Positions 9,801-33,320 of a DNA stretch of 64,000 bases are shown here, in pieces (position 1 is the first letter of the stretch; the number at the start of each line of letters is the position of its first letter). The position numbers were made by a program, and so were the translations under genes. The notes under the pieces are model-generated. The model saw only the letters and a list, made by a program, of their open reading frames with translations, did not search any database and was not told the DNA's origin. Source of the DNA: a virus (taxonomy: Duplodnaviria > Caudoviricetes). Location: positions 451 to 64,450 of the IMG/VR virus record IMGVR_UViG_3300028595_000011; one strand, written 5' to 3'.

Positions 9801-12800
9801 ACTACGCAGAAAGGCACAGCGAAGAGCACAGCCCCATCTGTGAAGCTTGTGCCGCAATGGAAAGAAGATGTCAACAACGCCACCACCAGAGAAGAGCTAG
9901 ATGAGGTTGAGAAGCAGTGGCAAGAATCTGACAGGGCATCTTCCGTTGGTGTGCGTAAGGCTATTGATGCCAGGCGCAAGACGCTTGAGACTGAGGCGGC
10001 GGCTGAGATTGGCCTCGATGAGTTTGACTATGACACAACCGGGCAGAAGGGGACCATTGGTGGTGTAAATGATGGCTCATTTGTCAGGGTGACTACTGAG
10101 GATGGTCGGCTGGTAGAGGGCAGGGTGAGAGCAGAGGTGGGTGAAGAGGGACTCATCGCCATTGATGATGGCAACAAGCTCGAATACTTTGACCCTGAAA
10201 CCGAGGTCGATATTCTGGTGCGTAAGCAGAAGCCAGCGCCAAGGGTCCCGCCCAAGACCAAGCGCAAGAAGGGTAAGTACTATGGAGATCCCGACCTTGA
10301 GATGGAGATCTTCGATTACGCCAATGACTTCGAGCTTGCCAACGCAGAGAAGCCCGATGCCCAAGAGTTGTATGAGTACATGAACGAAGAGGGCGTAGAC
10401 ATTGAGCTTGAAGAGGTGCGTGATGCGCTTGAGAATGAGCCGTTCCTCGGTCGCACTGCGCTCGGCTGGGTTCAGGCATTTGAGAAGTTCAGTGACCAGG
10501 GCATTACTGCCACAAGGCTGAAGGACTTCATCAATAGCTCTGCTGCCCTGAAGGGCAACAAGAAGATTGACGCTGCCATGGCTCGTTATCTTATGAGCAT
10601 CGCTGATGTTACACCTGTTCAGGATGTTGATGCTAAGGCTGGTGAGGATGAGCAACTTGACGTTGAGGAGCCAACCATTCCGACCGCTCCGCCAAGGAGA
10701 AGGAAGAGTGACCAGGCTCAGGATAAAACTGACGCCATTGAGTCCATCCTGAGAGAAGACGCAGAGAAAGCTGGCATCCCTAAGGATGTAGTTGATCGTG
10801 TGGTCAAGAAGATTCGGGCCGGAGAAGAGGTTACGAAGGTCATGCAGGAGGAGAAGGTCCGAGCCAACTTCCGTGGCCCAGCAGTAGAGCAGGCACAGTT
10901 CCTTGAGAAAGCAGTAGCTGAGCAGGACGCACTCGAAAGAATGCTGCGCGATCCGTTTGAGATCGGCAAGACACCAGCCAGACGAAAGGGTGAGGCTGAG
11001 GTCGTCGCACAGACGGAAGCCGAAGAGGCAGCACCAATTAGTCAAGAGGCTAAGGACAAGATTGCAGATGCTCTTGATGGCACAACAAAGCCTGATGAGG
11101 ATGTAAAGAAGTACGGCCCGATCAAGATGAACAAGAACGGAACCACGTCCGCCCGTTCCATGAAGGACCAAATTCGGAAGGCTGACACAATCCAAAGGCT
11201 TGATGACCTTGAAGCCATTGAGAGGGAGCAGGTTGTTGATGGTTTGATGGACAAGCCTAGAGCTTCCATCATCACAGCGATTGAGAATAGGCGGAAGGAG
11301 ATGGCTGGCGATTCTGTACCAACTAAGCCGGAGCCTGAAAAGGCTGGCGAGGTTGTTGAGTTTCCAGGCAGGGATGAAGAGTGGGCAGAGTTTCTGAAGA
11401 ACGGAAGACTTCTCGCTAAGAGCAAGAAGACAAACGAACAAAAGACAGGAACAGTTGTTCTTGATTCCAGTGAAACTAGAGACGGCGCTGTCGATATGGT
11501 TAAAGGGATTGTTGGGGGCAAGGGTTCCCTGGCTGATGAGATGACGAAGATTTCAAAGAGGAATGGACAGCACATCATCTTCAATCTTCAGGTTTCTGAG
11601 AACCCTGACACGGGTCTCTTTGAAGTTCTTGGGCACTATACGCTAACGCAGAGTCCGCCCAAGATAAAGATTGCCAACTCTACGTATGGGCGAGACATCA
11701 AAAACATAGAGAAGTCTAAGTCCATCAAGAGGGCTGCGGTCCTTGAGGTTCAAGAAAGAACTGCGGCGAGCGCCGCTGTTGCTGAGCAAGTCGGAAGGGT
11801 TGCTGAGCGGGCCGATGCGACCGGCGTTTTTGTTGGCGTCGTTCTTGAAGGGAAAGATGGCAAGATGATTGCCAACTTTTTTGACGTAAATGGCAAGGAT
11901 CTTGGTGCTGTTTCGTTTAGCAATGGCACGAAAGAGTATGCTGAGCTAAAGAACATTCTTGACAAGAAGTCTGGCGAAAATGTTGTGGCTGTAGAATTTA
12001 GCAAGCCCGAGTCTGAGAAAAACAAAGGCAGGCCAACCAAGCCAGAGGCCAAGGCTGCAACCAAGAAGGCTAAGGCTAAGAAGAAAACCACTCAGCCTAA
12101 GAAGGATCAGATCGAACAAGCCAGGGCTGAGCTTGAGGTGGCGAGGTCAGAGGTCCAGAGGCTTCGAGATGAGGGCGTTAACGTCTTTGATGATGAGATG
12201 CGTGCCGCAATGGACGCTCTCGATGACGCTGACGATAGGCTTGCCACGCTTCAAAGCAAGGAGGATGGGCAGTCCCCCAAAGACCCAGCCAAGAGGCCAG
12301 ACAAGAAGCAGGAGAAGTCAACCAAGACTAAGACAAATGATTCTGTCCGGCCAGACAGCACCCCGTCTCTCAGGAGAGACAAGAATGGTGCCGTGTTTGT
12401 TGAAGATTTGCTCAACATCATCAACTCAGCAGACAACATGGAAGTTGTAATGGCTGCGCTGGAAGTGTATAAGGCAGACCTTAAGAACGGTCGGCGCAAG
12501 AAGGCATCTCGCAAGATTACGAAGATGGCCGAACGCAAGATGGATGAGCTTGCTGCCTCCGAGATGGATGCAGAAGAGATATCGACTAGAGACTTCGCGT
12601 TCGATAAGAACCGGGGCAACGAAGAGATTGACTACATCTATGTGGACAATGGGGCTGGAGGGAAGTCTCTTGTCAGAGTGGTTGGTCAAGTAAAGAAGGC
12701 CGAGTCAGAAGCAGAGGGCGAAGTTGTTGAGACAGATGAAGAGGCCAGCGCACGCATGGCAGATGTCATGGCTGCTGAATGGCCGTGGGTGAGTCAGACC

Positions 12801-15800
12801 GAGGAGCAAAATGAGGCTTATGAATATCTGGACAGCTTAGAGGGTGACGCTCAGGCTGCCGAGATCTTTGATGTCATCACTACAAGGTGGAAGTCTACCA
12901 ACATGATTGATGACATGATTGATCCGACCTTTGTCAACCAAGTCTTGAATGAGATGGAGGAACAGGCACCGTCCGTTGCTGGCAATAGACAGCTTGTTGT
13001 TGATGCGATCAGGAATGAAGAGCTTCTTGATGATGCTAGAACCATGCGCATGTTCCTGTTCCAAGAGTACCCAGGTGCTACTACGCTTCGCAATGCAACT
13101 GGCGAGCCGATTAGCAGCAAGCTTTCTCGTTTACCAAGGCGCGCATTCGAAGACTACTTAGAGCTAGAGTCTGACAGGGTTGAGGACGAGGCCCGTGGCA
13201 CGACAGCAGAACAGGCGCAGAAAGACATGCGCTCGAAGCCTGGGTTCCAGGGTAAACCTAAGCGTCCACATCCAGAACATGTGAAGCAAGCTGTCCTGAT
13301 GAAAGACATTGAGCTTGGGACAATCCAAACGCTCATAGAGAACGGACACGTTGACAATGATAGCCTGAAGCGGGCCATCAACGAGGAGATTGAGAGGCGC
13401 AAGAAGGAAGATCCGAAGCGCAAGTTCCCCTCAACCATGGAAGAGGTCGAGGCATACCTTGGCGCGGTCGCTGATGCCGCCGGAATGGAGATGGCAGACC
13501 TGGTCCGCAAGGTTGTTTCTCTCGCTGATATTAACGAGAGGTCAAAGGCGGCTAGGTCAGAGCGGCAGGAAGAGGTGAAGGTTGAGAAGGCTGAGGAAGA
13601 GGATGAAGTAGCTCCAGAAGACATTGATGCCGAGGAAGAGCGGCTCGCAATGCTGAGAGACCTCGACAACATGGGCTTCTTTGAGCTTGCCAGTGGGGAG
13701 ATCGCACACCCAGGGTTCCCGAAGAAGCTTGGCGGAGAGTCCGGGAAGGAGATGATCACCAAGCGTGCGCTGGAGAATCTTGGCCCAGGAACTGAGGTTG
13801 AAGAAATTCCAGGCGGGTTCCGCATTACGGTACAGAGTGATAATGGTCCGGTCCCACTGGACATCTTGGTCACTAGCACTGATCGTGCGATCCTCAGAAT
13901 GCTTGAAGAACTCACGCAGGGCGAGTTGCTCGTTCTTGCCAGAAATCTTGAGCGCCATCTGACAAGGCAGGGCGAGAGGGGGGAGAACATTCTCCCGACT
14001 GCACGCGGTTCAATTAACACAACCGCCAAGCTGATCGCAGCAATTCGAACGGCAATGATTTTTGTGGATGTCCAAAAGGGAAGGGGTAACCTTGAGATTC
14101 CGCCGATCTCCGCTGGTAGATACGACGCAGACCCAGTTACCGGCAGACACCTTGTTGAAATCATCTCAGGCCTTGCGTTTAGGGAGTCTGGATACCATGA
14201 GGTTGGTCACTGGTGGCTTAGGAACTTTGTGTCTGATGAAACGTTCCTCAAGATAATCAATGAGCACGGCTCAGAAGAGGATGCCGTCAACGCAATTGCT
14301 GTTGCCCTATCAAGTGCGGCAGATGCTAAAGACCTGAAAAGAAAAGAGATGGGAACCGTTGGCAGGATTGCATCCGACATTAAAGAGTTTGCAATCAAGC
14401 TGTGGAACACGATCTTTAAGAAGGGTTCCGTTGATCCCAACGAGATCGCTAAGCTCTGGGCTGACCCGACACTCGACAACATCGTGGAGCTTTTCCAGCG
14501 GGGCGAAGCCTTCAAGAAAATGTATCCGATGATCAGCAGAGAGATGCCATCAACCCTGACTCCTGCTGGTGTACAGAGCAGGCTCCATGACATATGGGGG
14601 ACACTGCCAAGGAATAAGGATGTTCTGCGTGGCGAAACTGACAAGCCCGGACTAGTGCTCAGCGGAGGCCCAAGGGTGGACAGCAACCCGCTGAAAATTG
14701 TTCCTGTTCGGTATGCTCTGCGCTCGTATAGTGAGGGCGACATTGATGCTGGCAGAAAGATTCTGCTTCAATCCAAGCTGACCAAGCAGGCGCATGAGGT
14801 AAGCATTGTCCCGGCAACGCAGTACCTCCAGGACATGGTTGCGCAAGCCAACAGGGCGAGCGATGTCCACGACTACGGCGATGTCACACACGTTGTGTTT
14901 GTGCGAGAGCCGCGGTTTGGTGACATGTGGATTCCTGTGCAGTTTGTGAATGCAAGCAGCACTGCCGCAGCCAGACAGCAGGTCACAGACATGTGGGAAT
15001 CTGGAGAAGACAGCTTCTTCTGGGTTGGCAACAGCGTTGGCCGTGGCCGGATTGGATTCAATCTTGCCGGAAGAAATCCCGAGGATTCAAGGCAGCTTGA
15101 CGATCTCGCCCGTGTTATTGACTTGCATCTTCCGGAAGATGTCAGCGAGGCACAGCTTCCCCTTGAGCAAGATGCCGCAGCGAGACAGGGTGGCACCCAG
15201 CGGCAGATGGAGCAGCCATCATTCCTCGATAGGATGAAGGCACACAGATTCCGTGGCATGAAGTCCTGGCTAAATGCTAACCTCAAGCCAGCCAGGGGTT
15301 TAGATAAAGAACTGTACCTCACCCTCATTGATCGCAGGCGTGGCGCAATGAAGGGCAAGGTGATGGGCAAGGCCGCCAACCAGCGCGTGCGTAAGATAAT
15401 CAAGCAACTCAAAGACAAATTCGGTGAAGAGCGAATCAACAACACCCTGTCCATGGTTCTTGATGGGCGCATGCCAGTTGATCAGTTCAAGAGGATCTAC
15501 GGACTTAAGAACGACAACCCAGAAATGGTCGAGCTTCAGAAGATTCTTGATGAATCTGCACGGCTGAGGGCCGAGTTGTCTGCCAGCCCAAACATCCCCC
15601 AGAAGCTGAGGGATCTCATCCTTTCTAACGAGTTCTATCAAACTAGAATGTATGCGATCCATGCCCTTGGCAACGGGTATGTTGCACCGCAGGATGCATA
15701 TCAGGCTGCAGTCGATGCCGTCTTTGACATGCATGAAGAAGAAATCAACAGGCTCATCACCCGAGCCAACAAAACCATTGGGCGCAGAGAGGTGTTCGAT

Positions 15801-18341
15801 CTTCCTGGGTACATGCAGGCACCAGTTGCACAGAGGCAGCAGATGCTTCAGGGTCTCTCACGAACCAAGAAGGCAGCGATTGAGAACCTTGCTAAAGCAA
15901 TGGACCCATGGATGGAAGTCATTGATTCCCTTGAACTTAGAGACGGCAACCTGATTGCTCAGTGGTCTCAGGAATCCTTGAGCAGCATGGCTGCTGATAC
16001 TGTTGAAGGCTACCTAAGTAGCTCAGCCAACAAAGGCAAGTCTGTGCCTGGTCCGATTGGCGGCATGCCAATCACACACCAGATGAAGCGCAAGCTGGAC
16101 GAGACGTTCCGTGAATTGTACGGAGAGATCACAAGTCCGGGCGAGAGGTTGTCGAGAACCATGGAGGTTCAACACGATCTCCTCGCAGCAAGCGTCATGT
16201 TCCAGAAGATCTTCGAAGAAGGCGAAGGTAAGTGGTGGTCACGAGCAAAGCGTGGCAACTTCTCAGAAAGATTGGCCAGCGGACGTGGCATCACGCCCGC
16301 CGACCGCAGGAAGTATGGCAACATGGCTGGGATGTACGTCACGCAAGAGACATACGATCTCCTCCATGGCGAAGGAACCTTTGATCAGATTACCGAGGGC
16401 TTCGCCCCCACCAGGTGGTTCAACCAACTTCAGGCTGTCACTCGTGCGACTAGGTTAATCTGGCCGAAGACAATCCTTCGCAATGGCTTTACTTCGGTGA
16501 CAGGCTTTGCTGCCAGATCTGGTGATATCTTCAACAAGAACTGGCTAAAGCACATGAAAGATGGAACAGCCCTCGCCGCCAGAGTTGGCAGGGCCATCAT
16601 GGCAGATGAGGGCTGGGCACCAGGAAAGCAGGGAGATCCGGAGGCTTTAGAAATCCTTGCTGACTTGGTAGCCAAAGATGTTTTCGACTTCTCACAAGAC
16701 TCTATTCTGACTGCGATTGATGCGAACATTAAGATCACTGCTGAATCTAAGAAGGGTAGCCCGATGCGCATCCTTCGTGAGTCGATGATGCTGTATGCGT
16801 TGATCGACCTGCCAGCGAAGTATGCATCCTACTACTCGATGCGTGATGAGGGAGCGAGCCACGAAGAAGCAGTGCAGCATGTCCGTGACCACTACCAGTA
16901 CAGGGACTATGTCCCACTTGGCGTGAGCAAGATCAACCGAGCGAGCTTCGGGGATTACTTCGGTTACACCTTTGATTCCACAAGGACGTGGATCAATAGC
17001 ATGAATCGGGCAGCAAGAGAAGCCAAGAAGGGCAACCTGAGACCACTCATGGGCTTCATGTTGTCTGCAACGATACCGATCTTCCGCTTCGGCTCCGGTG
17101 GATGGCTTGCAGCAGCCTCACCCAAGTTGTATACGAGCATCGTTCATGCGACTGCGAGTCTTGGGAATCTCTTGACAGCACTCGGCATGAAGGATGATGA
17201 CGATGATGACACCTGGAAGATTGCAACTGACGAGCAAGTTGCGGCGCTCCGTGAATCCCTGCCATCATATGATAGGTATCAACCACTCGCTGTCTGGTAC
17301 GAGAAGAACGAGGATGGTGACTGGAACCTTAAGTGGTATGTGATGGGCAACCTTTCGGCATTCCCAATCGAGGATGTAATCATTGGGGCATGGCAGGCAT
17401 CCAATCAGAACACAGAGCTATCATTCATTGATGCGCTGATTCACAACACGTCGCAGGCATCCCCGTTCTCTTGGGGCATGACTGTTGAGAACGTGGTCAA
17501 GGCAACGACTGGTTATGATATGTCTAGCGGCTGGTCACAGCCTGGGCTGTGGGATGTATATGACAGCTTCCGTGACTCAAAAGACGGCACTGCCATCAGG
17601 CCCGACGCTGGAGAGATAGTAGCCAATAGGCTCTTCGATTTTGTTTCTGAATCCTTTGCACCTGGACAAACCGGGAATACAATCCGCACCGCATCTGAAG
17701 TCATTCAGGGACGGGAACCTCGTCTTGGGCGGTTCGTCAGGCGCAAGAAATTTAGCGATGTGGTGGACATCTTTGCAAGATTGCAACGTAGCTATGATGC
17801 CGCACCAGAGGATCAGGCTCGGCTCTTGGATAAGATGACAAGGAACAACTTTGAAAACCTGGAGATCGCCAAACGGATGGCCGGAACCGCTGGGCGCAAA
17901 GAACTGGAGTGGAAGGATGGAGCAGTTCGCAGTGAGCTACTCCGAACCGAGCGCGGCCAACGCGCATGGCATCGTGCGCTGCTCAACATCCAGAAGAAGG
18001 TTCAAAACTTTAGAGTCTTGACCAACGGTAACTTCAGTGACCAGGAGATCAAGGACATGTTGCGATCCTTCGGCACTATCAGGGCAGCCGAGGCTGACCA
18101 CATTGTAAGAGGAACAGTGGAGCAGATGACTGCATCCGAGTTCGAGATCAAGAGTAGACCATTACCAACACAGCGTGGTGATGACAAGGTCCTTGAATAC
18201 TTCGAGCAGACCAAGGGTGGCCAGGTATTATACAAGCCGCTCTGGGAAAGCATGAAGGAACAAGGCTATGCTGTTGGTGAACTCAAGTCATTTAGAACCA
18301 GAGCTAAGAAACTACGCAAGGATTGGATGAAGCAGCAGTAG
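6861..18341 (+). CDS. Giant internal virion (polyvalent-type) protein with zincin HExxH motif
   Basis: 3826-aa ORF ending the virion operon; hydrophobic G/A segments near N-terminus; YHEVGH at 14193-14210. Confidence 0.75.
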   Translation: MTTHDALFMFKDKKWKENTPLQLQYAAFATALKNDPGWKKMPPEVKAKVYKQNFGFESPFELINNPEFEFDSFDVEQRERIFDAVTINDDNWHNLGDEEKRLIKGKKIPEVGQRFLEAEAAGVQEPVELPKDEQGRIEVQPNVPHRPQIDGQYVVPPLQRPDDYSDQPIKASPPEGEGMYFPEVSNQLPPEVVEDIVNAPESVRPYLESEFGDKPFVSQREYDQSLRAMAMEQPDAPLPHGNINIGSPKDPVILSGSRIEVGTQRGVIEITPEEGERMFNRGVIRHHVETPNGVVMLRDPSKLSEEELAKARELDYVRPELMKNPAVAAYMKFNQGAGIDDVLNWAASKGEQVIDNKTLAGLAEFGITSQEQAIKMLAKKGHREAMMDQITGAPLSPEFHGLSRASQVKFIMDRVPLESEEDKREFTKKFMEQFVDPVKKDFDSLPDHLRPEYPKDPMERGVELRKHPYWNSLKAGTGDLLMAVGGAMWLTGDAMVQGGKEEGMELIEKGKEISDKYTDTEVEADLGQQLLRTAPVSVPLMVPAAVVSAATGGALLPVAIAAAGSGIAESFMEGGSTAAESLLAGDQEAVARSKGIRVTRDNLIYQAGMSIPEAYAAFVPTAKLTEAAAKLPGLRNIKMTPKMTEAWNTMGRVGVTKALDTAGRIALDTTSEYAEEWLQTFFQQAADQDKDTFSWDSIANATNAEMEERHGAGVVGAHFGGGMAVAGQPVQAVATYFSKEGTANRIQKKLFESEVNRLAEKFDAKPSEIRADIEAAYRTEGLMDEANTEVEVLSKELNIEEDEVRADLDGARSAAWGSHEQEDVTMLSQMFGVPEYFVRQNWDEVNAAAGRGALDEDTKTPASPEEAALEPGTTSVPAGVSAEVATSFDGIPDAHKGLIVDRATQVANMRIKAKMDQYGLDEKTADQFPENEREQIVKDSFEQVWRIYADSEPGRAALGKGESQKPTKPPTKAEEPKATPTTQKGTAKSTAPSVKLVPQWKEDVNNATTREELDEVEKQWQESDRASSVGVRKAIDARRKTLETEAAAEIGLDEFDYDTTGQKGTIGGVNDGSFVRVTTEDGRLVEGRVRAEVGEEGLIAIDDGNKLEYFDPETEVDILVRKQKPAPRVPPKTKRKKGKYYGDPDLEMEIFDYANDFELANAEKPDAQELYEYMNEEGVDIELEEVRDALENEPFLGRTALGWVQAFEKFSDQGITATRLKDFINSSAALKGNKKIDAAMARYLMSIADVTPVQDVDAKAGEDEQLDVEEPTIPTAPPRRRKSDQAQDKTDAIESILREDAEKAGIPKDVVDRVVKKIRAGEEVTKVMQEEKVRANFRGPAVEQAQFLEKAVAEQDALERMLRDPFEIGKTPARRKGEAEVVAQTEAEEAAPISQEAKDKIADALDGTTKPDEDVKKYGPIKMNKNGTTSARSMKDQIRKADTIQRLDDLEAIEREQVVDGLMDKPRASIITAIENRRKEMAGDSVPTKPEPEKAGEVVEFPGRDEEWAEFLKNGRLLAKSKKTNEQKTGTVVLDSSETRDGAVDMVKGIVGGKGSLADEMTKISKRNGQHIIFNLQVSENPDTGLFEVLGHYTLTQSPPKIKIANSTYGRDIKNIEKSKSIKRAAVLEVQERTAASAAVAEQVGRVAERADATGVFVGVVLEGKDGKMIANFFDVNGKDLGAVSFSNGTKEYAELKNILDKKSGENVVAVEFSKPESEKNKGRPTKPEAKAATKKAKAKKKTTQPKKDQIEQARAELEVARSEVQRLRDEGVNVFDDEMRAAMDALDDADDRLATLQSKEDGQSPKDPAKRPDKKQEKSTKTKTNDSVRPDSTPSLRRDKNGAVFVEDLLNIINSADNMEVVMAALEVYKADLKNGRRKKASRKITKMAERKMDELAASEMDAEEISTRDFAFDKNRGNEEIDYIYVDNGAGGKSLVRVVGQVKKAESEAEGEVVETDEEASARMADVMAAEWPWVSQTEEQNEAYEYLDSLEGDAQAAEIFDVITTRWKSTNMIDDMIDPTFVNQVLNEMEEQAPSVAGNRQLVVDAIRNEELLDDARTMRMFLFQEYPGATTLRNATGEPISSKLSRLPRRAFEDYLELESDRVEDEARGTTAEQAQKDMRSKPGFQGKPKRPHPEHVKQAVLMKDIELGTIQTLIENGHVDNDSLKRAINEEIERRKKEDPKRKFPSTMEEVEAYLGAVADAAGMEMADLVRKVVSLADINERSKAARSERQEEVKVEKAEEEDEVAPEDIDAEEERLAMLRDLDNMGFFELASGEIAHPGFPKKLGGESGKEMITKRALENLGPGTEVEEIPGGFRITVQSDNGPVPLDILVTSTDRAILRMLEELTQGELLVLARNLERHLTRQGERGENILPTARGSINTTAKLIAAIRTAMIFVDVQKGRGNLEIPPISAGRYDADPVTGRHLVEIISGLAFRESGYHEVGHWWLRNFVSDETFLKIINEHGSEEDAVNAIAVALSSAADAKDLKRKEMGTVGRIASDIKEFAIKLWNTIFKKGSVDPNEIAKLWADPTLDNIVELFQRGEAFKKMYPMISREMPSTLTPAGVQSRLHDIWGTLPRNKDVLRGETDKPGLVLSGGPRVDSNPLKIVPVRYALRSYSEGDIDAGRKILLQSKLTKQAHEVSIVPATQYLQDMVAQANRASDVHDYGDVTHVVFVREPRFGDMWIPVQFVNASSTAAARQQVTDMWESGEDSFFWVGNSVGRGRIGFNLAGRNPEDSRQLDDLARVIDLHLPEDVSEAQLPLEQDAAARQGGTQRQMEQPSFLDRMKAHRFRGMKSWLNANLKPARGLDKELYLTLIDRRRGAMKGKVMGKAANQRVRKIIKQLKDKFGEERINNTLSMVLDGRMPVDQFKRIYGLKNDNPEMVELQKILDESARLRAELSASPNIPQKLRDLILSNEFYQTRMYAIHALGNGYVAPQDAYQAAVDAVFDMHEEEINRLITRANKTIGRREVFDLPGYMQAPVAQRQQMLQGLSRTKKAAIENLAKAMDPWMEVIDSLELRDGNLIAQWSQESLSSMAADTVEGYLSSSANKGKSVPGPIGGMPITHQMKRKLDETFRELYGEITSPGERLSRTMEVQHDLLAASVMFQKIFEEGEGKWWSRAKRGNFSERLASGRGITPADRRKYGNMAGMYVTQETYDLLHGEGTFDQITEGFAPTRWFNQLQAVTRATRLIWPKTILRNGFTSVTGFAARSGDIFNKNWLKHMKDGTALAARVGRAIMADEGWAPGKQGDPEALEILADLVAKDVFDFSQDSILTAIDANIKITAESKKGSPMRILRESMMLYALIDLPAKYASYYSMRDEGASHEEAVQHVRDHYQYRDYVPLGVSKINRASFGDYFGYTFDSTRTWINSMNRAAREAKKGNLRPLMGFMLSATIPIFRFGSGGWLAAASPKLYTSIVHATASLGNLLTALGMKDDDDDDTWKIATDEQVAALRESLPSYDRYQPLAVWYEKNEDGDWNLKWYVMGNLSAFPIEDVIIGAWQASNQNTELSFIDALIHNTSQASPFSWGMTVENVVKATTGYDMSSGWSQPGLWDVYDSFRDSKDGTAIRPDAGEIVANRLFDFVSESFAPGQTGNTIRTASEVIQGREPRLGRFVRRKKFSDVVDIFARLQRSYDAAPEDQARLLDKMTRNNFENLEIAKRMAGTAGRKELEWKDGAVRSELLRTERGQRAWHRALLNIQKKVQNFRVLTNGNFSDQEIKDMLRSFGTIRAAEADHIVRGTVEQMTASEFEIKSRPLPTQRGDDKVLEYFEQTKGGQVLYKPLWESMKEQGYAVGELKSFRTRAKKLRKDWMKQQ

Positions 18342-18506
18342 CTATCCGTACAGATCAAGCTTTCTTGATTCGAGGATTTTGAAAAGCTTCTCTCGGACCT
18401 CTTCTGCATCAGGCCAGAACGAGCAGTCTATTTTCATTTCACCTGTTAGCCATACGACAAATTCTTGCATCGCCCACTGAAACTCTTGTTCTTTGTCTTT
18501 GCTCAT
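18342..18506 (-). CDS. Hypothetical protein (MSKDKEQEFQW...)
   Basis: ATGA overlap with upstream gene; the longer track start runs through a structured RNA. Confidence 0.55.
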   Translation of the reverse strand: MSKDKEQEFQWAMQEFVVWLTGEMKIDCSFWPDAEEVREKLFKILESRKLDLYG

Positions 18507-18721
18507 AGCTCTGTTCCACATTTGGGGCAGCGACTCGTGACAGAAGCCGAAGGGATCTGGTGTCCGCAGTGCAAGCAAAACCTCTTCTTCTCTTTGGGCC
18601 TTCGCGTCTTGAGTTCCATGCGCTCCCCGCTGGCCAGGTCTGATCGGCGTCTTTCGCCACCACGGACGGCTGGCTCCTTGGTGTCTTTCCTCGTCTTGTA
18701 GATATCGTCTCTCGTTTTCAT
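18503..18721 (-). CDS. Small basic Zn-ribbon protein
   Basis: GGAGG RBS; CLHC..CPKC. Confidence 0.6.
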   Translation of the reverse strand: MKTRDDIYKTRKDTKEPAVRGGERRRSDLASGERMELKTRRPKEKKRFCLHCGHQIPSASVTSRCPKCGTEL

Positions 18722-18730
18722 GTCGCCTCC

Positions 18731-18820
18731 AAAAAATAGGGGCGGCGGCAAGGGAGAAGGATGACCGCCCGGAAAGGAGAACGGGCGGGAGGGGAGGTGT
18801 GATTGCCGCCACCCATCTAC
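18731..18820 (-). ncRNA. Candidate structured RNA with anti-SD loops / terminator
   Basis: 12-bp outer stem with a U:G pair valid only on - strand, 7-bp inner stem, three C/U-rich single strands, U6 tail. Confidence 0.55.
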
Positions 18821-18824
18821 TAGC

Positions 18825-19871
18825 TTACGCTAGTTTCTCCGCCTCTTCAACCTTCTCCCTGAGAAAGTGATAGAATTCTTCTCTATCTTTTCTGGACCTG
18901 ATCTCAGTAACAGACTCAAAACCAGACTGACCAAGCAGGTCATACGTAGTACGTTCAGCAGCCTGCTGTCCAATTGCCTCTGCGAGTCTGCTTGCCAGAC
19001 CATCGACAGCCTGTTGGAATTGGTTGTCTTCATCGCTGGAAATTCTTCCGCTTCCCTCGAAGCTTGGCTCCTCTTCCACAGCTTCTGCGTCCACAACCAG
19101 ATCTTCAAGCGTTGACTTAGGCTCTTCGACATCGACCTCTCCGGTTTCGGGGTCAACCCTTTCTTCAAGCAGCTTATGCAGCAGACCACGTTCGGCATAC
19201 TCGTCCGCCGTGACAGCGGCCTGAACATCCGGTGACAGTGGCAGGTACTTCATAAGCTTGCGAACTACTGTCTTGCGAGCCATCTCTTCAAAGTCCGTGA
19301 CCCAAGGTCCGCTCTCTCCGGCTCGGCTGCGCTTCCTGATCTTTTCTACATCATCATCATACATGACTTCGAACGCAACCTCACCACTCTCGGTGAATTT
19401 GGCAGCAGCATAGACAGCGTGGAACTTGCCGGGTTCTGCGCCGACAGCCCTGGCTGGTACGTGTGTGAGGAATGGGTCAGCCCCGTATCCATAGCTGAAG
19501 TCATCGCCCTCATACACGACCCTCGCTTGAATCCATGCGATCTTCCCGCTGCGTCTGGCTAGATCAATCAGGCCACGGTAGCCTGGAATAAACTTGGCAC
19601 TCTTGCCATACGGCAGGATGTAACCATGACCAAGCACACCATCAGGCAGCAGGCCGAGAGAACTCGCCTCCATCACAGCCTTCATAAGAGATGCCGGTTC
19701 ACAATCCAGAAGCTTGGGGGTTGTTGTGATTGCTGTCAAGAACACACGGCTCATCTTCTCTGCCGTGATGTGCGACGGCAGCGCACGCCTGAGATTATCC
19801 AATGTCTCAGGGTCGCTCACCAACTTCTTGATTGCAAAGAACTTCTCGTTTGCAGGTACGATCTGGCTCAT
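18825..19871 (-). CDS. recT: RecT single-strand annealing recombinase
   Basis: LLDCEPASLMKAVMEASSLGL..GYILPYG..GYRGLIDLARRSG..W..DFEEMARKTVV..LPLS. Confidence 0.93.
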   Translation of the reverse strand: MSQIVPANEKFFAIKKLVSDPETLDNLRRALPSHITAEKMSRVFLTAITTTPKLLDCEPASLMKAVMEASSLGLLPDGVLGHGYILPYGKSAKFIPGYRGLIDLARRSGKIAWIQARVVYEGDDFSYGYGADPFLTHVPARAVGAEPGKFHAVYAAAKFTESGEVAFEVMYDDDVEKIRKRSRAGESGPWVTDFEEMARKTVVRKLMKYLPLSPDVQAAVTADEYAERGLLHKLLEERVDPETGEVDVEEPKSTLEDLVVDAEAVEEEPSFEGSGRISSDEDNQFQQAVDGLASRLAEAIGQQAAERTTYDLLGQSGFESVTEIRSRKDREEFYHFLREKVEEAEKLA

Positions 19872-20818
19872 TTCTTCTCCTTCACCCTGCGTAGGGTTTT
19901 GAATGTGCCACCCTTGGTGACACCAGGTTTGCGTGTGACGGTACTGACCCTGAAAGATCCACTACCATCAGGGAGAAAGCCTTCAGTGGCATCGCCAATA
20001 GCCTGCCAGATCTTGGCTTCGGCGTCCTTCTTCACCCTCTCCCACTCCTTGATCTTTTCCTTTGCACCTTGGACTTGAGCCGCCCAATGGATCGAGTCTA
20101 ACGGTAGCTCGATTTGCTTATCAGGGTCCGGCTCCGCAATGCGCTTGACCAGATCCAGATCCAAAGCACCAGCTACTGGTTGCTCGTTGTTCTCCACCAT
20201 CTGCCAGAAGGTTTGAAGCTTCTGGAGCATGCCGCCAATGAATTTCTCACTGCGTTCCACTAAAGCCCAAGCAAACCGATTGCCACCAATCAGTGTTGCG
20301 ATGCAACCAATATCTGCACCCGCAACAAACATTTGATGCTGGCATTGGGCCTGGTACTTGATCGGCGCTTCTTCAGCCCACTGATCAGCTACCCAGGCGC
20401 TGCTGTTTTTTAGCTCTAGTGGTCCCCACTTACCATCAATACACACCCAGTAATCCAGATTAGCCTGCATGAAGGGGTACTCCGGATGGGCCAAAGTGCG
20501 TGGCTCGGGTCGAACCTCATAGCCGGTTCTTTCCCGAAACTCATCAGCGATAAGCGGCTCTAGTTTATGTCCAAAGTGGAATAGCTCCATGAGTTCTTCG
20601 GAGGGTTCATCATCGAAGATCCCTCGCTTGTCTGCCCACACCTCAAGTGCGGACCTGAAGGCCCCATCAGCACCTAGAATAGAAGGGGTATCGGACGCCC
20701 CTATTCCTCCACGGCGTGCCATAAGCCACTCATCTGATTGAACTTGGAACTCTCCAACCACAACAGGCTCATGCATCAACCCCGGAGGGAATAGCATTCC
20801 TTCAGTCCATTCACTCAT
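19868..20818 (-). CDS. YqaJ-like (lambda-exonuclease family) exonuclease
   Basis: WLMARRGGIGASD..GHKLEP..ANLD..LELK..YQAQCQHQM; adjacent to recT. Confidence 0.9.
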   Translation of the reverse strand: MSEWTEGMLFPPGLMHEPVVVGEFQVQSDEWLMARRGGIGASDTPSILGADGAFRSALEVWADKRGIFDDEPSEELMELFHFGHKLEPLIADEFRERTGYEVRPEPRTLAHPEYPFMQANLDYWVCIDGKWGPLELKNSSAWVADQWAEEAPIKYQAQCQHQMFVAGADIGCIATLIGGNRFAWALVERSEKFIGGMLQKLQTFWQMVENNEQPVAGALDLDLVKRIAEPDPDKQIELPLDSIHWAAQVQGAKEKIKEWERVKKDAEAKIWQAIGDATEGFLPDGSGSFRVSTVTRKPGVTKGGTFKTLRRVKEKK

Positions 20819-20827
20819 GTCTACTCC

Positions 20828-21127
20828 TCAGTCGATGAACTGTAGTTCTTCGACTATCTTCGTGCTTCTTGCAGCACGGGTTGCTCTCTCTTCGTTAATG
20901 TCTGGGAGATCTGGGGCAAGCACCTTCTGCCACATACCATATGCCCCACTCTCTTTCTTGATTGTAATCCTTGACGTTCTATATTGCACGCCGAATGTCT
21001 CACTCACATATTCAACCGTGACAAGGTGCAGCCTTGGGATGTGCTCCACTTCGCTGTTGATGGCGTACCCATAGAACAGGTAGACGCCCGGCTTCTTGGG
21101 CCACTTCGATGACCAGTCGTCACTCAT
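20828..21127 (-). CDS. Hypothetical protein
   Basis: WSSKWPKKPGVYLFY motif; ATGAGTGA-coupled start. Confidence 0.65.
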   Translation of the reverse strand: MSDDWSSKWPKKPGVYLFYGYAINSEVEHIPRLHLVTVEYVSETFGVQYRTSRITIKKESGAYGMWQKVLAPDLPDINEERATRAARSTKIVEELQFID

Positions 21128-21575
21128 CTTTCATTCTCCATCCTCGCCCGTTGCAGTCGGGGCATGGCTCTACCAACTCGCCGTTGATCTGCGATGCTTT
21201 GAGGTGGTCACACTCGACGATGTCAGCAAGGGCAAGAACCTCTTTAATTACTATGGCAAGGCTTGAGCAACGGTCGTCTCCAGCGATTTTGAGCTTTTCA
21301 ATATACTCCCACATCTTGTCGATGCGCTCGTAGGGGATGAAAATGGCGTCAACGTCGTTCATGGCGTCGATCTCTGCCTGAAGGATGGAAGCCGACGCCT
21401 CAGCCTGACCCTGATGGTACTCTGCAAGTTTGACCTGCTGCTCCAACTCCTCGATGCGGGCGCGGAGACGTTCGATCTCATCGGCGGCTTGCCCTTCGAC
21501 AGTGCTCTCGGGCGTCATCCAACACTCCCTTGCGGCCATCTCGCGCAAGGCTCTGATCAAAGCATCGTCACTCAT
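21120..21575 (-). CDS. Ead/Ea22-like mosaic coiled-coil protein
   Basis: AADEIERLRARIEELE segment; C-terminal CPDC. Confidence 0.65.
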   Translation of the reverse strand: MSDDALIRALREMAARECWMTPESTVEGQAADEIERLRARIEELEQQVKLAEYHQGQAEASASILQAEIDAMNDVDAIFIPYERIDKMWEYIEKLKIAGDDRCSSLAIVIKEVLALADIVECDHLKASQINGELVEPCPDCNGRGWRMKDE

Positions 21576-21784
21576 AGTCCGACCCTCGCAATTTTCCAGA
21601 GGAGCCAGAGAGGTGCGCCGATCGCAACAACGACGAGCAGAATCGCGATCATCGCGGGCCAGAAGAACGGAATGAGGATGATAGCCTCAAAGCTCATGTC
21701 CGCGAAATCATCCTCGGATCGAGCCTCGACGATGAACATGATTATGAAGAGAACCAGGACCGACCACAAATAGAATTCAATCAT
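21572..21784 (-). CDS. Small membrane protein
   Basis: Two hydrophobic segments, FFWP motif. Confidence 0.6.
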   Translation of the reverse strand: MIEFYLWSVLVLFIIMFIVEARSEDDFADMSFEAIILIPFFWPAMIAILLVVVAIGAPLWLLWKIARVGL

Positions 21785-22178
21785 CGCTCATCCTCCAGCC
21801 GCCCTCGCCGTCATCGACGATGCCGATGATTTCGAGGGCGCGCTCCATTCCCTGATGGTAGACAGGCTCCGCTCGCGTTTGAATCTTCGCCCACGCCTTG
21901 TCGATGCAGTCGTTGGGGATGGTGACGTGATCTTCCGGGTGGAAGGTTCGTAGTTCGTGAGCACGAAGGCGAACCTGCTCTGAAACCTTCGCCTCCAACT
22001 TCTCGATGCGGCGTCCCTTCTCCTCGTTCGCGTTCATCTCCAACAGAAGCTCTTTCTCCAACTCCTCGATGCGGGCGCGGAGGCGCTCGATCTCTTTCTT
22101 CGCCCCTCTGAGTTCACGCTGCGGTTGGACCACCTGCCTGTCCAGGGCTGCGTTCCAGCGGTCTGCATAGTCACTCAT
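21777..22178 (-). CDS. Ead/Ea22-like mosaic protein, paralog of 21120..21575
   Basis: GGAGG RBS at MSDYADRW; shared EIERLRARIEELE, IPxxxIDKxW and GWRM. Confidence 0.65.
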   Translation of the reverse strand: MSDYADRWNAALDRQVVQPQRELRGAKKEIERLRARIEELEKELLLEMNANEEKGRRIEKLEAKVSEQVRLRAHELRTFHPEDHVTIPNDCIDKAWAKIQTRAEPVYHQGMERALEIIGIVDDGEGGWRMSDD

Positions 22179-22266
22179 CGTCGTCCTCCTCCAAGCAGTC
22201 AAAGCAAATATCATCGACAGTATCCTCAACGGGAACTTCAGACCCACACCGACAACAAACAGTCAT
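22171..22266 (-). CDS. 31-aa Zn-finger peptide (MTVCCRCG...ICFDCLEEDDDE)
   Basis: Fills the gap, two CxxC, coupled stop/start; not in track. Confidence 0.55.
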   Translation of the reverse strand: MTVCCRCGSEVPVEDTVDDICFDCLEEDDDE

Positions 22267-22267
22267 T

Positions 22268-22459
22268 TCATCGCTCAATGGTTGCCTCCAATTCTCCGAT
22301 GCGGCGACGATGGGTTTTTATCTCCCTTCTGTATTGGTCAGGCAGGGCTTGGATACGTTCGTAGTGTTCCAACCGTATGAGAGCGTGAGTAGGGTTGTCG
22401 GTTTCTACAATTTTATTGTCAGGCGTTATCGACACTCGTCGTACGTCGTCGTCACTCAT
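22268..22459 (-). CDS. Hypothetical protein (MSDDDVRR...)
   Basis: GGAGG RBS, ATGAGTGA junction. Confidence 0.6.
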   Translation of the reverse strand: MSDDDVRRVSITPDNKIVETDNPTHALIRLEHYERIQALPDQYRREIKTHRRRIGELEATIER

Positions 22460-22652
22460 CGTCGGCCTCCATTTCATCGAGAATGTCAGGGGTGTATCGT
22501 TCAAGAGCAGACCTGAACCGACAATTCTCAGCGCGGAGACGTTCGATCTCCTTGGCCCCTTCTTCCAGCAGCGCCCCTGCTGGCAGGTAGTGCTGGTCGA
22601 TCATCTGATTGTTCTGTGCTTCATGGACCATGCGTTCTGGTAGGTCGCTCAT
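22452..22652 (-). CDS. Hypothetical protein (MSDLPERM...EIERLRA)
   Basis: GGAGG RBS; shared repeat. Confidence 0.6.
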   Translation of the reverse strand: MSDLPERMVHEAQNNQMIDQHYLPAGALLEEGAKEIERLRAENCRFRSALERYTPDILDEMEADDE

Positions 22653-22671
22653 TTTCATCCTCCAAGCATTC

Positions 22672-22794
22672 GAGGGGGGACGCCAAGGCAGTCCGGTAGT
22701 TCGACCCGCTCGGCCACCAAAGAAACTTGATGGGAGTGGGGAGGAACCTTTGTTTTATTTGTTTAACGCCCATCGGCGTGGCGCTACCCCCCTC
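22672..22794 (-). ncRNA. Candidate structured intergenic RNA
   Basis: Closing stem GAGGGGGG..CGCCA / TGGCG..CCCCCCTC, A-rich and anti-SD single strands, internal hairpin with G:U pairs on - strand. Confidence 0.4.
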
Positions 22795-22800
22795 TTATAA

Positions 22801-22959
22801 CTAGTTTGACCAAGTGATCTCGGCCAACACAACTTTGTATGTGCTAAGTCCAGCAGACTCAAAGCTTTCCTTTACTTCCTTCGCAGCTTCTGGATCTTCG
22901 AAAACATCAACGACTATATCGTCGTCACAGTCCACAAGAACCCACTGTCTACTCGTCAT
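22801..22959 (-). CDS. Small acidic protein (MTSRQWVLVD...)
   Basis: 52-aa ORF filling the gap; not in track. Confidence 0.5.
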   Translation of the reverse strand: MTSRQWVLVDCDDDIVVDVFEDPEAAKEVKESFESAGLSTYKVVLAEITWSN

Positions 22960-23446
22960 CTTCATTCTTGTCTACCCCCAAGGCCTGTTGAATTAGATCA
23001 AATGCTGAACCCATCTTAACGTCTTTCCAATCTACCTCAAGATATGTCCAGCCCTCAAGGTTTGCGAGGTTGCTCTTGTCCATGTCCCTGCGCCTGCCTT
23101 CAGGGGAATGGTGTGCGCCACCTAAGTAATGGACCTTGCCATCCTTTGAGCGGCGCACAACATAACTTCCTCCGTGGATCTCGACGAGTAGTCTTTCTGT
23201 AGGTATTGCGAGATCTGCACGGAACCTTCTCTTCGTAGAGAAAACATATTCAAGGTACAGAGTCGATGGCTTAACTTCCATTTTGGAATTCCAACGACCA
23301 CCAAACTCGATCCCCATTTGTTCTAGCTCAATGATCAGGTTCATTAGAGCCAAGTCTCTGTCACGCTTGGCTTTAGTATCTTTCCTCTTCATCCCCACTT
23401 TGCCAGCAAGACGGCGGAACTCTTCAAGCGTTGTGTTCTGATTCAT
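22949..23446 (-). CDS. PD-(D/E)xK endonuclease, DUF559/Vsr-like
   Basis: EYVF..RRFRADLA..LVEIHGG..H..DMDKSN..EGW. Confidence 0.75.
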   Translation of the reverse strand: MNQNTTLEEFRRLAGKVGMKRKDTKAKRDRDLALMNLIIELEQMGIEFGGRWNSKMEVKPSTLYLEYVFSTKRRFRADLAIPTERLLVEIHGGSYVVRRSKDGKVHYLGGAHHSPEGRRRDMDKSNLANLEGWTYLEVDWKDVKMGSAFDLIQQALGVDKNEDDE

Positions 23447-23621
23447 CTTTGACTCCCACAATAGGATACACAAAGACTTCACAGAATGCAATTGCGAAGA
23501 GGATCATGTCACACAGTGTGGACTTGATCCAGCGTAGCACTAAAAGAAAGAACGCTATCCAGAGGATGAAACCATAATAGATTGCGAAGAGTACGATGGG
23601 TGAAACTACCAGCAGTTTCAT
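23424..23621 (-). CDS. Small membrane protein
   Basis: Very hydrophobic 65-aa ORF; weak RBS. Confidence 0.4.
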   Translation of the reverse strand: MKLLVVSPIVLFAIYYGFILWIAFFLLVLRWIKSTLCDMILFAIAFCEVFVYPIVGVKDESEHNA

Positions 23622-23634
23622 CCAGGCACTTCCG

Positions 23635-23680
23635 AAAGAAAGGACCGCCGCTCCCAGCAGGATTGCCGGGAGCAGCAGTC
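23635..23680 (-). terminator. Intrinsic terminator
   Basis: 16-bp stem (G:U pairs on - strand) followed by CUUUCUUU. Confidence 0.7.
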
Positions 23681-23688
23681 GATTTAGG

Positions 23689-24126
23689 TTAGCAATAGTC
23701 CCGACTGAGGATCGGAGCGTTGCGGTTCACGAGCTTCTCCCAGGAGCGGGGGAAGGCCTTCTTGAACATGCCGTTGGCCCAGCGGGCGGCGTAACCGGCG
23801 GTGCCTTCCGAGGCCGAGGCCATCGGGAATTCACGATTGTCCTCAAGCGCCTCAGCAAAGAGGCGGAGGTAGGTCATAATGGCGAAGCCGGGGCGCAGGA
23901 CGATGGTGTCCTGGCCGGAGACGTAGAAGCCACCAGCGTTGGTGGGTTCGTCGCCATCGGTGTCCACGACGAGATCAATCTCGATCCCATATGCATCACA
24001 CAGCTCAGCGTGAAACACACGGATCTTCTCGACCCGCTCGTCGAAGTCTCCCGCCCACGGGCGGTCCTGTGCATACGCCTTCGCAGCAGCGAGTGCGTAG
24101 CGGTTGTGCTTGGCAACAAATTCCAT
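23689..24126 (-). CDS. Zincin-like protein with degenerate metal site
   Basis: AAGGAGGA RBS; GGFY..DTIVL..TYLRLFAEAL where HExxH would be expected. Confidence 0.5.
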   Translation of the reverse strand: MEFVAKHNRYALAAAKAYAQDRPWAGDFDERVEKIRVFHAELCDAYGIEIDLVVDTDGDEPTNAGGFYVSGQDTIVLRPGFAIMTYLRLFAEALEDNREFPMASASEGTAGYAARWANGMFKKAFPRSWEKLVNRNAPILSRDYC

Positions 24127-24192
24127 TTTGTATTCCTCCTTGGAATGGTTGGTTAGTCTTAGAACCGAGTTGTTCATTATGCACTCGCTACT

Positions 24193-24762
24193 CTAGCTCT
24201 CCTTTCTAACACCTCCCCTGTTTTCTAGGAGCCACATCGCCTCCCTCAACGCTATTGGATAGTCTTCCCTCGATGACCATACGATGCCCATCCGGGGGAA
24301 GCTGGATTCAATCCATGCCTTGCATAGATCAACCAGCTTGGCCAATGTAGTGCGGAGCATGGCAACCTCTAGCTCCTGTCCATGTTTGGGCGGGGCTGGC
24401 TCTTCGTTAGCCTCATCAACAGCCTCGGCAACAACTGCCCTGGCAAACTTTCTTGCCCTGGTAGATGCTCCCTTCGGTGTCAGCGCACCGCCCCATGACT
24501 TTCCTCGCCACAGCCTACCGTTGTAGATCATAGCGTAATGAGTGAAGTAGTTCTTCGCTTCCTCATTACCCATAAAGATTCGGTCGTTGTGTTTAACAGC
24601 CTGGCTATACACTATGCCATGCTCTGTAAACGTGATGCTCTCAAGCGAGATATCTGAAAGATCCATGCTCATCTTGCCCAGAGCCATCACGTTGCTTCGT
24701 GACAGGCCAGGTCGGAACTTGACAGACCACGGCTCCCAGAAGTAGCTCGCATCAGCAGACAT
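24193..24762 (-). CDS. Hypothetical protein
   Basis: 189-aa ORF, TAATG coupling. Confidence 0.65.
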   Translation of the reverse strand: MSADASYFWEPWSVKFRPGLSRSNVMALGKMSMDLSDISLESITFTEHGIVYSQAVKHNDRIFMGNEEAKNYFTHYAMIYNGRLWRGKSWGGALTPKGASTRARKFARAVVAEAVDEANEEPAPPKHGQELEVAMLRTTLAKLVDLCKAWIESSFPRMGIVWSSREDYPIALREAMWLLENRGGVRKES

Positions 24763-25118
24763 TAGTTCTCCTCACCCTCCGGCACGGTGGAATCAACAAT
24801 CTTCGCAACCATCTTGTTGCTGTTTTGTTCTGTGTATTCCACCATCTCCCTCATTGAATCCCCGTCAACCCCGAGGTTATGAAGGAACAGCATTTGAGCC
24901 AGAAGAATATCATGCCATACCAACCCGACATCCTTGTCGGATGAGGCAGGGAACCACTCAACCATGGATGCCTGACTTGCTGATGCCCCCTTGCCAATGA
25001 AGACAAATACAGCACCATCAATCAGACTTGCATCCTGTTGTTTGGTCATCTCCAAGAATGACTCAAGCATCATTACATATTCTGGTGTTACTTCCATTTT
25101 ACTCCCCGCTTCACTCAT
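24762..25118 (-). CDS. Hypothetical protein
   Basis: ATGA overlap, operon context. Confidence 0.6.
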   Translation of the reverse strand: MSEAGSKMEVTPEYVMMLESFLEMTKQQDASLIDGAVFVFIGKGASASQASMVEWFPASSDKDVGLVWHDILLAQMLFLHNLGVDGDSMREMVEYTEQNSNKMVAKIVDSTVPEGEEN

Positions 25119-26290: not shown

Positions 26291-26304
26291 AAACGAACTC
26301 CTTT

Positions 26305-27522: not shown

Positions 27523-27531
27523 GCAATCTCC

Positions 27532-29046: not shown

Positions 29047-29145
29047 TCATTCTCCTTTCTGCAACGTCTCATTCATTTCCCGCTGATGAGTGCGTTGTCT
29101 CAATACTCGGCACAGTATGGTGCCTGTCTCAATTGAATAGCTTCC

Positions 29146-29487
29146 TTACTTCCACCGACACAGTGGAGGAGCGGCAATGTCTTCACTTGTCTTGCTTGGT
29201 AGTAGCTGGTCGTCTGTCTGTATGCCCTCCACTCTAAAGGGCAAGTCCCCCTCCCACGCGGACACGTAGTTGCATGGCAAGCCGTCGATGACATCGAGTC
29301 TTACCAATCGGCAGCCAGCCTTTCGTAGCGTTTCCCAAGAGAAACCAAGGAGAATTTCCGCAACTTCAATGCAGGTAACACCACTATCACTGAGTGTCTG
29401 CTCAAAGAATGCCCACTCGGTTTCAGATATCACCTGAACCACACCCCACATCATGCCCTTGAACTTGTCATCGAACTGATTGCTCAT
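29146..29487 (-). CDS. Hypothetical protein
   Basis: ORF in operon. Confidence 0.55.
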   Translation of the reverse strand: MSNQFDDKFKGMMWGVVQVISETEWAFFEQTLSDSGVTCIEVAEILLGFSWETLRKAGCRLVRLDVIDGLPCNYVSAWEGDLPFRVEGIQTDDQLLPSKTSEDIAAPPLCRWK

Positions 29488-29490
29488 TGG

Positions 29491-29730
29491 CTAGTCCAGT
29501 TCGAGCCATGCCCGTGTTTCATCCGATGCTTCCCAGGCATCAAAGGTCTGGGTTGTTTCTTGATAGACATTGAATGCCATAAAGAATCCACAAGCTAAGC
29601 CATCAGCTATGCAGTACAGCATCAGCCAGAGGCGACGGCCACGCTTCCCTTCCCTGGTGATAACCCAGTCATAGAAGCAGCGAAGCATCTTCATTGTCTT
29701 GAAATCAAGACGTTCGATGTACCGATACAT
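29491..29730 (-). CDS. Hypothetical protein
   Basis: AGAAAGGAGG RBS. Confidence 0.6.
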   Translation of the reverse strand: MYRYIERLDFKTMKMLRCFYDWVITREGKRGRRLWLMLYCIADGLACGFFMAFNVYQETTQTFDAWEASDETRAWLELD

Positions 29731-29742
29731 AGCGCCTCCTTT

Positions 29743-30069: not shown

Positions 30070-30084
30070 CTCGTCTCCCTTCTA

Positions 30085-30566: not shown

Positions 30567-30578
30567 AGACTACTCCTT

Positions 30579-30866: not shown

Positions 30867-30869
30867 AGG

Positions 30870-31500: not shown

Positions 31501-31545
31501 CCCACGCAGGGCTGCTAGTTCCAGTAGTCTGGATCGACTACTGCC

Positions 31546-32080: not shown

Positions 32081-32181
32081 GGTCTCACCTTTCCTTGTCT
32101 CTGGCAAACCAGTCAGCCAGAAGCATGTAGATCAGAAGCCACATGCACACAGTAAGCAATGTGTTTTGCCAATCTCCCATG

Positions 32182-33308: not shown

Positions 33309-33320
33309 TTTGCCTCCCTT

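Follow-up and report, generated by a model that had tools for sequence, protein, structure and literature searches.

The stretch of DNA analysed here, a 64,000-nucleotide (nt) window spanning bases 451–64450 of a 64,450-base phage genome (IMG/VR record IMGVR_UViG_3300028595_000011), carries an 87-nt element (positions 18735–18821, minus strand) between its recT gene and a small zinc-ribbon gene. Judged by its fold and by comparison with a relative, this element is a real, conserved, strand-specific and selected RNA structure. Its scaffold of stems displays three pyrimidine-only strands, and we tentatively read it as an anti-Shine–Dalgarno (anti-SD) pairing RNA whose loop favours the GAAAGGAG class of early ribosome-binding sites, a reading that is plausible but falls short of being probable.

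The element fills the entire gap between the two genes on the recT-sense strand. Three nucleotides past the recT stop codon (UAA, 18827–18825) begins the 5' arm of a basal stem P0 (AGUAG, 18821–18817), followed by a 2-nt AU bulge and the 5' arm of stem P1 (GGGUGGCGGCAA, 18814–18803); together these lower-stem 5' arms (18803–18821) contribute to a first helix of 17 pairs, their 3' counterparts lying at 18735–18751 (P1, 18751–18740; P0, CUAUU, 18739–18735). The 12-base-pair (bp) P1 opens into an internal loop of 14 × 13 nt, formed by strands S1 (UCACACCUCCCCUC, 18789–18802) and S3 (UCAUCCUUCUCCC, 18752–18764), above which a 7-bp upper hairpin P2 (18765–18788; arms CCGCCCG, 18788–18782, and CGGGCGG, 18771–18765) is capped by the 10-nt apical loop S2 (UUCUCCUUUC, 18781–18772), giving the order P0-P1-S1-P2-S2-P2'-S3-P1'-P0'. 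All three strands consist of pyrimidines only and are unpaired in the predicted fold, and the two longest sense-strand pyrimidine runs outside 35.7–36.3 kb both lie inside the element. A run of six U (U6, 18731–18736), the first two within P0, forms a terminator-like tail in the window phage only. Refolding reproduced the sequence, strand and fold given in a preliminary description of the locus, with a minimum free energy (MFE) of −41.2 kcal/mol compared to −30.4 ± 3.3 kcal/mol for 200 shuffles (z −3.3; one of the 200 as stable). That description had missed P0, the 5-bp extension (AGUAG/CUAUU) beyond the 2-nt bulge, as well as the small downstream gene starting 10 nt past the U-run. Scans detected neither a tRNA nor any Rfam family that reached its gathering score.

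Evidence for selection comes from L042, a metagenome contig identified in a metagenome scan with a RecT-clade alignment and the single syntenic relative. Its genes follow the order exonuclease, RecT, a 121-nt gap, a gene for a 75-residue zinc-ribbon protein, and a convergent giant open reading frame (ORF). The two RecT proteins are 57% identical and the third codon positions of recT 42% identical, so that silent sites are near saturation, and the zinc-ribbon proteins share 32% identity. At positions 3044–3146 of this contig an element of the same architecture (MFE −48.2 kcal/mol, z −2.7) is predicted to fold into a 5-bp P0, a 2-nt bulge, a 13-bp P1, S1 of 13 nt, a 12-bp P2, a 13-nt loop and S3 of 13 nt. 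It retains CACCUCCC in S1, CUCCUUUC in the apical loop and CAUCCUUCUCCC in S3, the identity between the two genomes amounting to 12 of 13 letters in S3 and 8/8 in the cores of both S1 and S2. In agreement with the covariation that the preliminary description had suggested looking for, 7 of 24 stem pairs are changed on both sides and all still pair, four more being changed on one side; of these, five double and four single changes fall in the 17 pairs of the first helix. Standard pairs account for 46/46 cells, whereas controls in which partners were slid by 1–3 columns were 37–51% paired and showed 0–1 double changes. Two MAFFT alignments (A2, A4), which put the stems in the wrong place, were left out of these counts. 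When a covariance model trained solely on the window sequence was run over 542,655 bases from 81 sources, L042 scored 35.1 bits (E 6.8e-6) and no other hit had an E better than 1.5. Retention of the loops, covariation of the stems and recovery of L042 by a window-only model together identify a selected RNA element. Both genomes share the fold, all three strands and the spacing around P0: the recT stop codon precedes P0 by 3 nt in the window and 5 nt in L042, and in both a GGAGG begins 4 nt past the P0 base, followed by a 4-nt spacer and AUG.

The preliminary description had fixed the strand by a U:G pair and the U-tail. G:U pairs occur in both genomes (two in the window, six in L042) and would become A:C mismatches on the opposite strand, so that the element strand is the recT-sense strand, while the U-tail is absent from L042. 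On account of the same mismatches, a function of the plus strand, such as a GGA-loop sponge, was rejected. On that antisense strand (18746–18790) the complement of S3 reads GGGAGAAGGAUG, an SD-like run with an AUG opening a 13-codon ORF; L042 has the AUG, but its peptide is unrelated, and this mini-ORF was rejected. A coding explanation was likewise discarded, since the frame of an ORF running through the element (18342–18812) is not conserved in L042, nor is any other frame, and a triplex-forming pyrimidine clamp was dismissed because S1 and reversed S3 are, by eye, not mirror images.

An improved covariance model (R2), run over 200 sources among which was the remainder of the window, gave no further copy with an E under 0.28; L091–L121 were searched with model R1 only. 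The phage collection holds no close relative by DNA or protein (RecT at or below about 50% identity, portal at or below 29%), IMG/VR RecT loci reach at most 52% identity with no close relative among them, and no relative of the clade-specific RecT C-terminus was found. A large protein database places this RecT in a clade of some 30 homologues at 54–61% identity. A three-motif pattern gave no IMG/VR match and eight matches in species-representative genomes, all unrelated on inspection and with no closed stem; a two-motif pattern gave 23 IMG/VR matches, none with the element architecture. L231–L232 were inspected by eye only.

The proposed function rests on complementarity between S2 and ribosome-binding sites, evaluated over 127 candidate start regions derived from heuristic gene calls, 25 of which fall in an early block defined as 25–34.9 kb. 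The commonest 8-mer across these regions is GAAAGGAG, which is present in nine of the 25 early-block starts and none of the 102 elsewhere, and precedes the genes for which it had previously been listed (at 34092, 32442, 31399, 30566, 29730 and 26290). On the minus strand of the early block (25000–34900) the SD takes the extended form (A)GAAAGGAG(G/A), while the other arms mostly use GGAGG. The conserved S2 core, CUCCUUUC, is the exact complement of GAAAGGAG, and the loop complements GAAAGGAG(AA). Accordingly, 8-mer seeds to S2 occur in 13 of the 127 start regions, whereas 2000 shuffles of matched composition average 1.1 (fraction 0.0045), and the L042 loop seeds 9/127 of the same window start set (fraction 0.0065); the L042 contig itself lacks an early region. 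Duplex energies with S2 also separate early starts from the rest (Mann–Whitney p 3e-4). The preliminary description had likened all three strands to a 16S rRNA 3' tail. By these sequence statistics, the apical loop is alone among the three in being specifically anti-SD.

The long exact matches quoted in the preliminary description all exist, and several mark candidate targets on the minus strand: 14 nt in the leader of gene 32831 (32837–32850), complementary to the P2 3' arm plus loop; 13 nt in the leader of gene 33614 (33622–33634); and 10 nt in the ribosome-binding site of an amidoligase-like gene with PHROG amidoligase matches (29050–29059), complementary to the full loop. The partner of a further 11-nt match (24209–24219) is S1 rather than the apical loop. 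In 300 mononucleotide shuffles of the element a match of at least 14 nt arose in 3%, two of at least 13 nt in 0.3%, and four of at least 11 nt in 18%. The two long matches are not independent, as both leaders (32825–32870 and 33608–33660, minus strand) carry the same GGGC-loop-GCCC hairpin (GGGC-UUCG/UUCAU-GCCC) one base before GGAAAGGAG, and should be counted as one event. Moreover, five letters of these matches, GCCCG, are stem letters both in the leader hairpin and in P2, and since they are paired in both partners, using them would cost as many pairs as it gained. The flanking matches had been advanced as the proof of specificity, a role that the comparison does not support: the flanks sit in the P2 stem, which is wholly different in L042.

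A mechanism along these lines would begin with synthesis of the element as the 3' end of the leftward recombination-gene message, an end that in the window phage would be formed by the hairpin and U6. The element would then pair with purine-rich ribosome-binding sites in the manner of riboregulators with C-rich loops, its apical loop CUCCUUUC, complement of the strongest SD consensus of the phage, seeding on GAAAGGAG sites confined to the early block and blocking the 30S subunit there, in trans or within one long transcript that carries both. Weaker, less selective SD contacts might come from S1 and S3, or these strands might serve another partner. Availability of the loop is consistent with the predicted ensembles, in which S2 is unpaired with a probability of 1.0 in either window context; for a transcript that stops at the U-tail, the predicted values of S1 and S3 are about 0.7. 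No promoter of the element's own was found. Parts of the region occur in one DNA run, a possible source, and in four salt-marsh RNA libraries. Compared with 17500–37400, the RNA libraries yield short contigs, most of them 100% identical, that cover recT and further genes of the leftward arm; these contigs reveal neither strand nor ends and show only that phage sequence is present in RNA libraries, and the fact that none of those listed spans 18731–18820 is uninformative.

Several observations weigh against an anti-SD pairing RNA. In contexts of 311–326 nt the unpaired probability of S1 and S3 in the window drops to only 0.18 and 0.09, and in the long context of L042 the predicted values are 0.11, 0.25 and 0.34 for S1, S2 and S3, respectively, these ensembles pairing S1 and S3 with nearby purine-rich coding sequence whose identity differs between the genomes. 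S1 and S3 are the best-conserved parts of the element, yet they match start regions only as shuffles do: their 8-mer seeds are found in 1/127 and 2/127 regions (shuffle fractions 0.64 and 0.45), and their duplex energies are no better than those of shuffles (fractions 0.27/0.12 and 0.09/0.05), so that most of the leader complementarity amounts to a generic C/U strand facing purine-rich starts. S2 for its part is indistinguishable from a copy of the host anti-SD, and specificity for early genes and a preference for strong SDs thus become one and the same statement. The discrete 3' end is not conserved, L042 having UUUCAU in place of the U-tract. Finally, the set of 127 starts includes some doubtful ones, and the pair counts derive from a structure-fitted alignment of two sequences only.

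Among other explanations, one that we consider unlikely but deserving of serious attention takes the structure to be a cis-acting intercistronic element of the recT/zinc-ribbon message, bringing the recT stop codon and the next SD side by side. It would stabilise the 3' end, undergo processing like the RNase III sites of T7, serve as an insulator or couple translation, and its loops would consist of pyrimidines only so that they stay open. The gap is wholly filled by the element in both genomes, the stop/P0/GGAGG/AUG geometry is the same in both, the zinc-ribbon gene is retained despite its mere 32% identity, and leaders of this phage generally tend to place a short hairpin against the SD; moreover, without a terminator tail recT and the zinc-ribbon gene of L042 must be co-transcribed. 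Openness, however, requires composition rather than sequence, whereas S3 is identical at 12/13 letters and the S1 and S2 cores at 8/8. None of the three strands pairs well with the zinc-ribbon start region (ranks 56 to 94.5 of 127), and, as judged from geometry, the 4-nt linker would be too short to reach the loops once P0 has formed. Masking of the zinc-ribbon SD in cis was rejected on account of this poor pairing and of its inconsistency, occlusion by the P1 3' arm being predicted in the window but not in L042 (SD unpaired 0.2 vs 0.8). The letter-level conservation of S1 and S3, unexplained by complementarity to phage start regions, would be accommodated by a protein-binding site, in which strands resembling the 16S rRNA tail are recognised by a protein, an option we regard as rather doubtful. 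The binder could be the neighbouring basic zinc-ribbon protein, autoregulated by rRNA-site mimicry as in ribosomal-protein operons, or a host factor for C/U-rich single strands (S1 protein, Rho or a 16S-tail factor). Element and zinc-ribbon gene are linked in both genomes, the encoded protein is very basic with a CxxC...CxxC ribbon, and the arrangement of a hairpin between two C-rich strands devoid of G is reminiscent of rutA-boxB-rutB in lambda tR1. On the other hand, this protein belongs to no recognisable RNA-binding family, and two genomes cannot separate linkage from inheritance. A related proposal, which we hold to be distinctly improbable, sees in the element a phage-made copy of the 16S rRNA 3' tail acting with the zinc-ribbon protein: positioned at the anti-SD region of the ribosome, the protein would retune the choice of messages and throttle its own synthesis through the look-alike leader. 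Alternatively the RNA itself would soak up extended SD sites, shifting translation from early and host genes to later phage genes.

That the structure is an ordinary intrinsic terminator behind recT, its loop sequence meaningless, appears very improbable. The window has a GC-rich hairpin with a U-tract (P0 and P1, a 17-bp stem, followed by U6), and the more distant RecT loci L043 and L044 (44–45% identity) carry a plain terminator at the same place. L042, however, retains structure and loops without the U-tract (UUUCAU), so that termination is not the conserved feature, and the loops are conserved while the stems drift. Other terminator-like hairpins of this phage have 3–8-nt loops and no internal loop, a weak contrast since the scan was blind to larger loops. 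We give least credence to an autoregulatory recT 3' untranslated region (3'-UTR), in which S3 and S1 would pair with the recT ribosome-binding site or 3' codons on the same mRNA, along the lines of the icaR 3'-UTR (PMC3868564). S3 pairs with the window recT start region at −16.6 kcal/mol (rank 10/127) and complements recT codons at 18847–18859 in 12 of 13 positions, and the recT start region of L042 is the best of four local ones for S1 (−15.5 kcal/mol) and S3 (−12.9 kcal/mol), although this local comparison covers those four start regions only. Against this, 40 window sites pair with S3 at −17 kcal/mol or better, and the partner sites differ between the genomes, S3 of L042 pairing with zinc-ribbon coding sequence in the long-context fold. 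A translation-sensing antiterminator, in which the 3' codons of recT would pair with S3 and S1, was rejected because the partner is not conserved.

Several known systems bear comparison with the proposed pairing RNA. In Gram-positive small RNAs with C-rich loops, of the RNAIII and RsaE/RoxS type, initiation is blocked by pyrimidine-rich loops, the terminator loop among them, that seed on SDs. The logic is the same, with no relation in sequence or structure, and where those RNAs have UCCC/CCCC motifs, the loops of the element copy the anti-SD tail with U and C mixed. The c4 antisense RNA of phages P1 and P7 is a small structured RNA that is cut from the transcript of its own target genes and pairs through exposed loops with a ribosome-binding site; its partners are specific sequences just downstream, however, whereas the start region adjacent to the element is a poor partner. 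Hairpins processed by RNase III in T7 have in common with the element only a broad layout, two stems separated by an internal loop and placed between genes, and its 14 × 13-nt internal loop is far larger than is known for T7 sites. In the consensus of the IMPDH RNA motif (RF02994), a CCUCCUCC run precedes a hairpin whose loop is UCUCCUUC, which resembles S1-P2-S2, although the window scores 12.1 bits compared to a gathering score of 95.4, over 35 nt matching positions 23–59 of the 108-position model, and is not a member.

Closer in logic are the Cuckoo RNAs (alpha-r14; CcsR and NfeR1 of the Alphaproteobacteria, RF02344). According to PMC4615179, their loop motif CCUCCUCCC, which is partly anti-SD, occludes ribosome-binding sites and is displayed in the apical loops of 2–4 consecutive hairpins, the stems of which drift by compensatory change so that the motif alone is conserved. 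Several unpaired C/U motifs, partly anti-SD, on drifting GC-rich stems are a shared trait, S3 of the element holds CCUUCUCCC, one letter off CCUCCUCCC, and S1 of the window contains CCUCCCCUCCC. The RF02344 model gives a weak full-length match on the same strand (window 13.4 bits, E 1.5; L042 10.1 bits, E 8.4), both scores far below the gathering value of 58.8 bits. In contrast to the Cuckoo RNAs, the motifs of the element lie in a nested internal loop rather than in the apical loops of consecutive hairpins, an alternative two-hairpin fold is possible in the window but impossible in L042, and the element is phage-borne and intercistronic. In the icaR mRNA of Staphylococcus aureus, PMC3868564 describes a UCCCCUG motif in the 3'-UTR that pairs with its own SD region and blocks the initiation complex, the resulting duplex being cut by RNase III. 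Common to both is a 3'-UTR with a pyrimidine motif resembling the anti-SD; icaR has a single motif acting on its own mRNA, while the element has three, and its partner on its own mRNA is not conserved. The element thus resembles Cuckoo and icaR in logic and is a member of neither.

The genes of the window, as delimited by heuristic calls, are arranged in three arms: a plus-strand arm ending in an ORF of 3826 amino acids (6861–18341), a leftward arm running from about 35 kb down to 18342, and a rightward arm that runs from 36.7 kb and includes the portal and packaging genes. At its 3' end the leftward arm has, in order and all on the minus strand, a YqaJ-type exonuclease (20818–19868), RecT (18825–19871; Pfam RecT PF03837, E 3.9e-45), the element, the 72-residue zinc-ribbon ORF and a 54-residue ORF (18506–18342) abutting the stop codon of the convergent giant gene. 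The zinc-ribbon unit (18503–18730), which has an orthologue in L042, comprises GGAGG (18730–18726), a 4-nt spacer and the gene beginning with AUG at 18721. The ribbon of its very basic product is C-terminal and yields only generic zinc-ribbon matches below Pfam cut-offs and a weak match of residues 40–70 to PHROG 54, a DksA-like zinc finger (E 0.002). A word-based search returned no homologue other than its own record, and its Atlas structural model is of low confidence (predicted local distance difference test score 0.46). The 3826-residue ORF, convergent with the recT arm, has no PHROG match, and no relative of its C-terminus was found in IMG/VR; a giant ORF of at least 1413 amino acids occupies the matching position in L042 (3353 to 7594, minus strand). 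One RNA-library contig matches the window up to 18501 and continues with 255 unlike letters, and may represent a variant phage with another right-hand neighbour, on the side of the zinc-ribbon gene and the element.

Two further regions of the window are unusual in composition or structure. A second closed-stem intergenic structure (22672–22794, minus strand) is bounded by GGGGGG...CCCCCC, has an energy of −59.8 kcal/mol for 171 nt (z −2.4), and contains an A-rich stretch and a UUCCUCCCCACUCCC strand, after which come GGAGG and the start codon of gene 22652. Its pyrimidine strand is paired in the MFE structure, so its design differs from that of the recT element, and neither model R1 nor R2 matched it; a 168-nt RNA-library contig (22669–22836) lies over this gap. 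Between 35700 and 36350 pyrimidine-rich runs cluster on the minus strand, and the GC skew is positive from 34 kb on; the minus-strand ORFs called there (35492–36040 and 36077–36496) may be on the wrong coding strand, or the region may be non-coding.

Riboregulators that display anti-SD sequences are established in bacteria; among the papers listed by a literature search, none describes a comparable RNA for lytic phages. If the element does pair with the extended SDs of the early genes, it would provide a simple RNA switch, encoded at the distal end of the arm that carries those genes, for shutting down early translation. Whatever its mechanism, the RNA motif is new, conserved and clearly marked by covariation, and belongs to no Rfam family.
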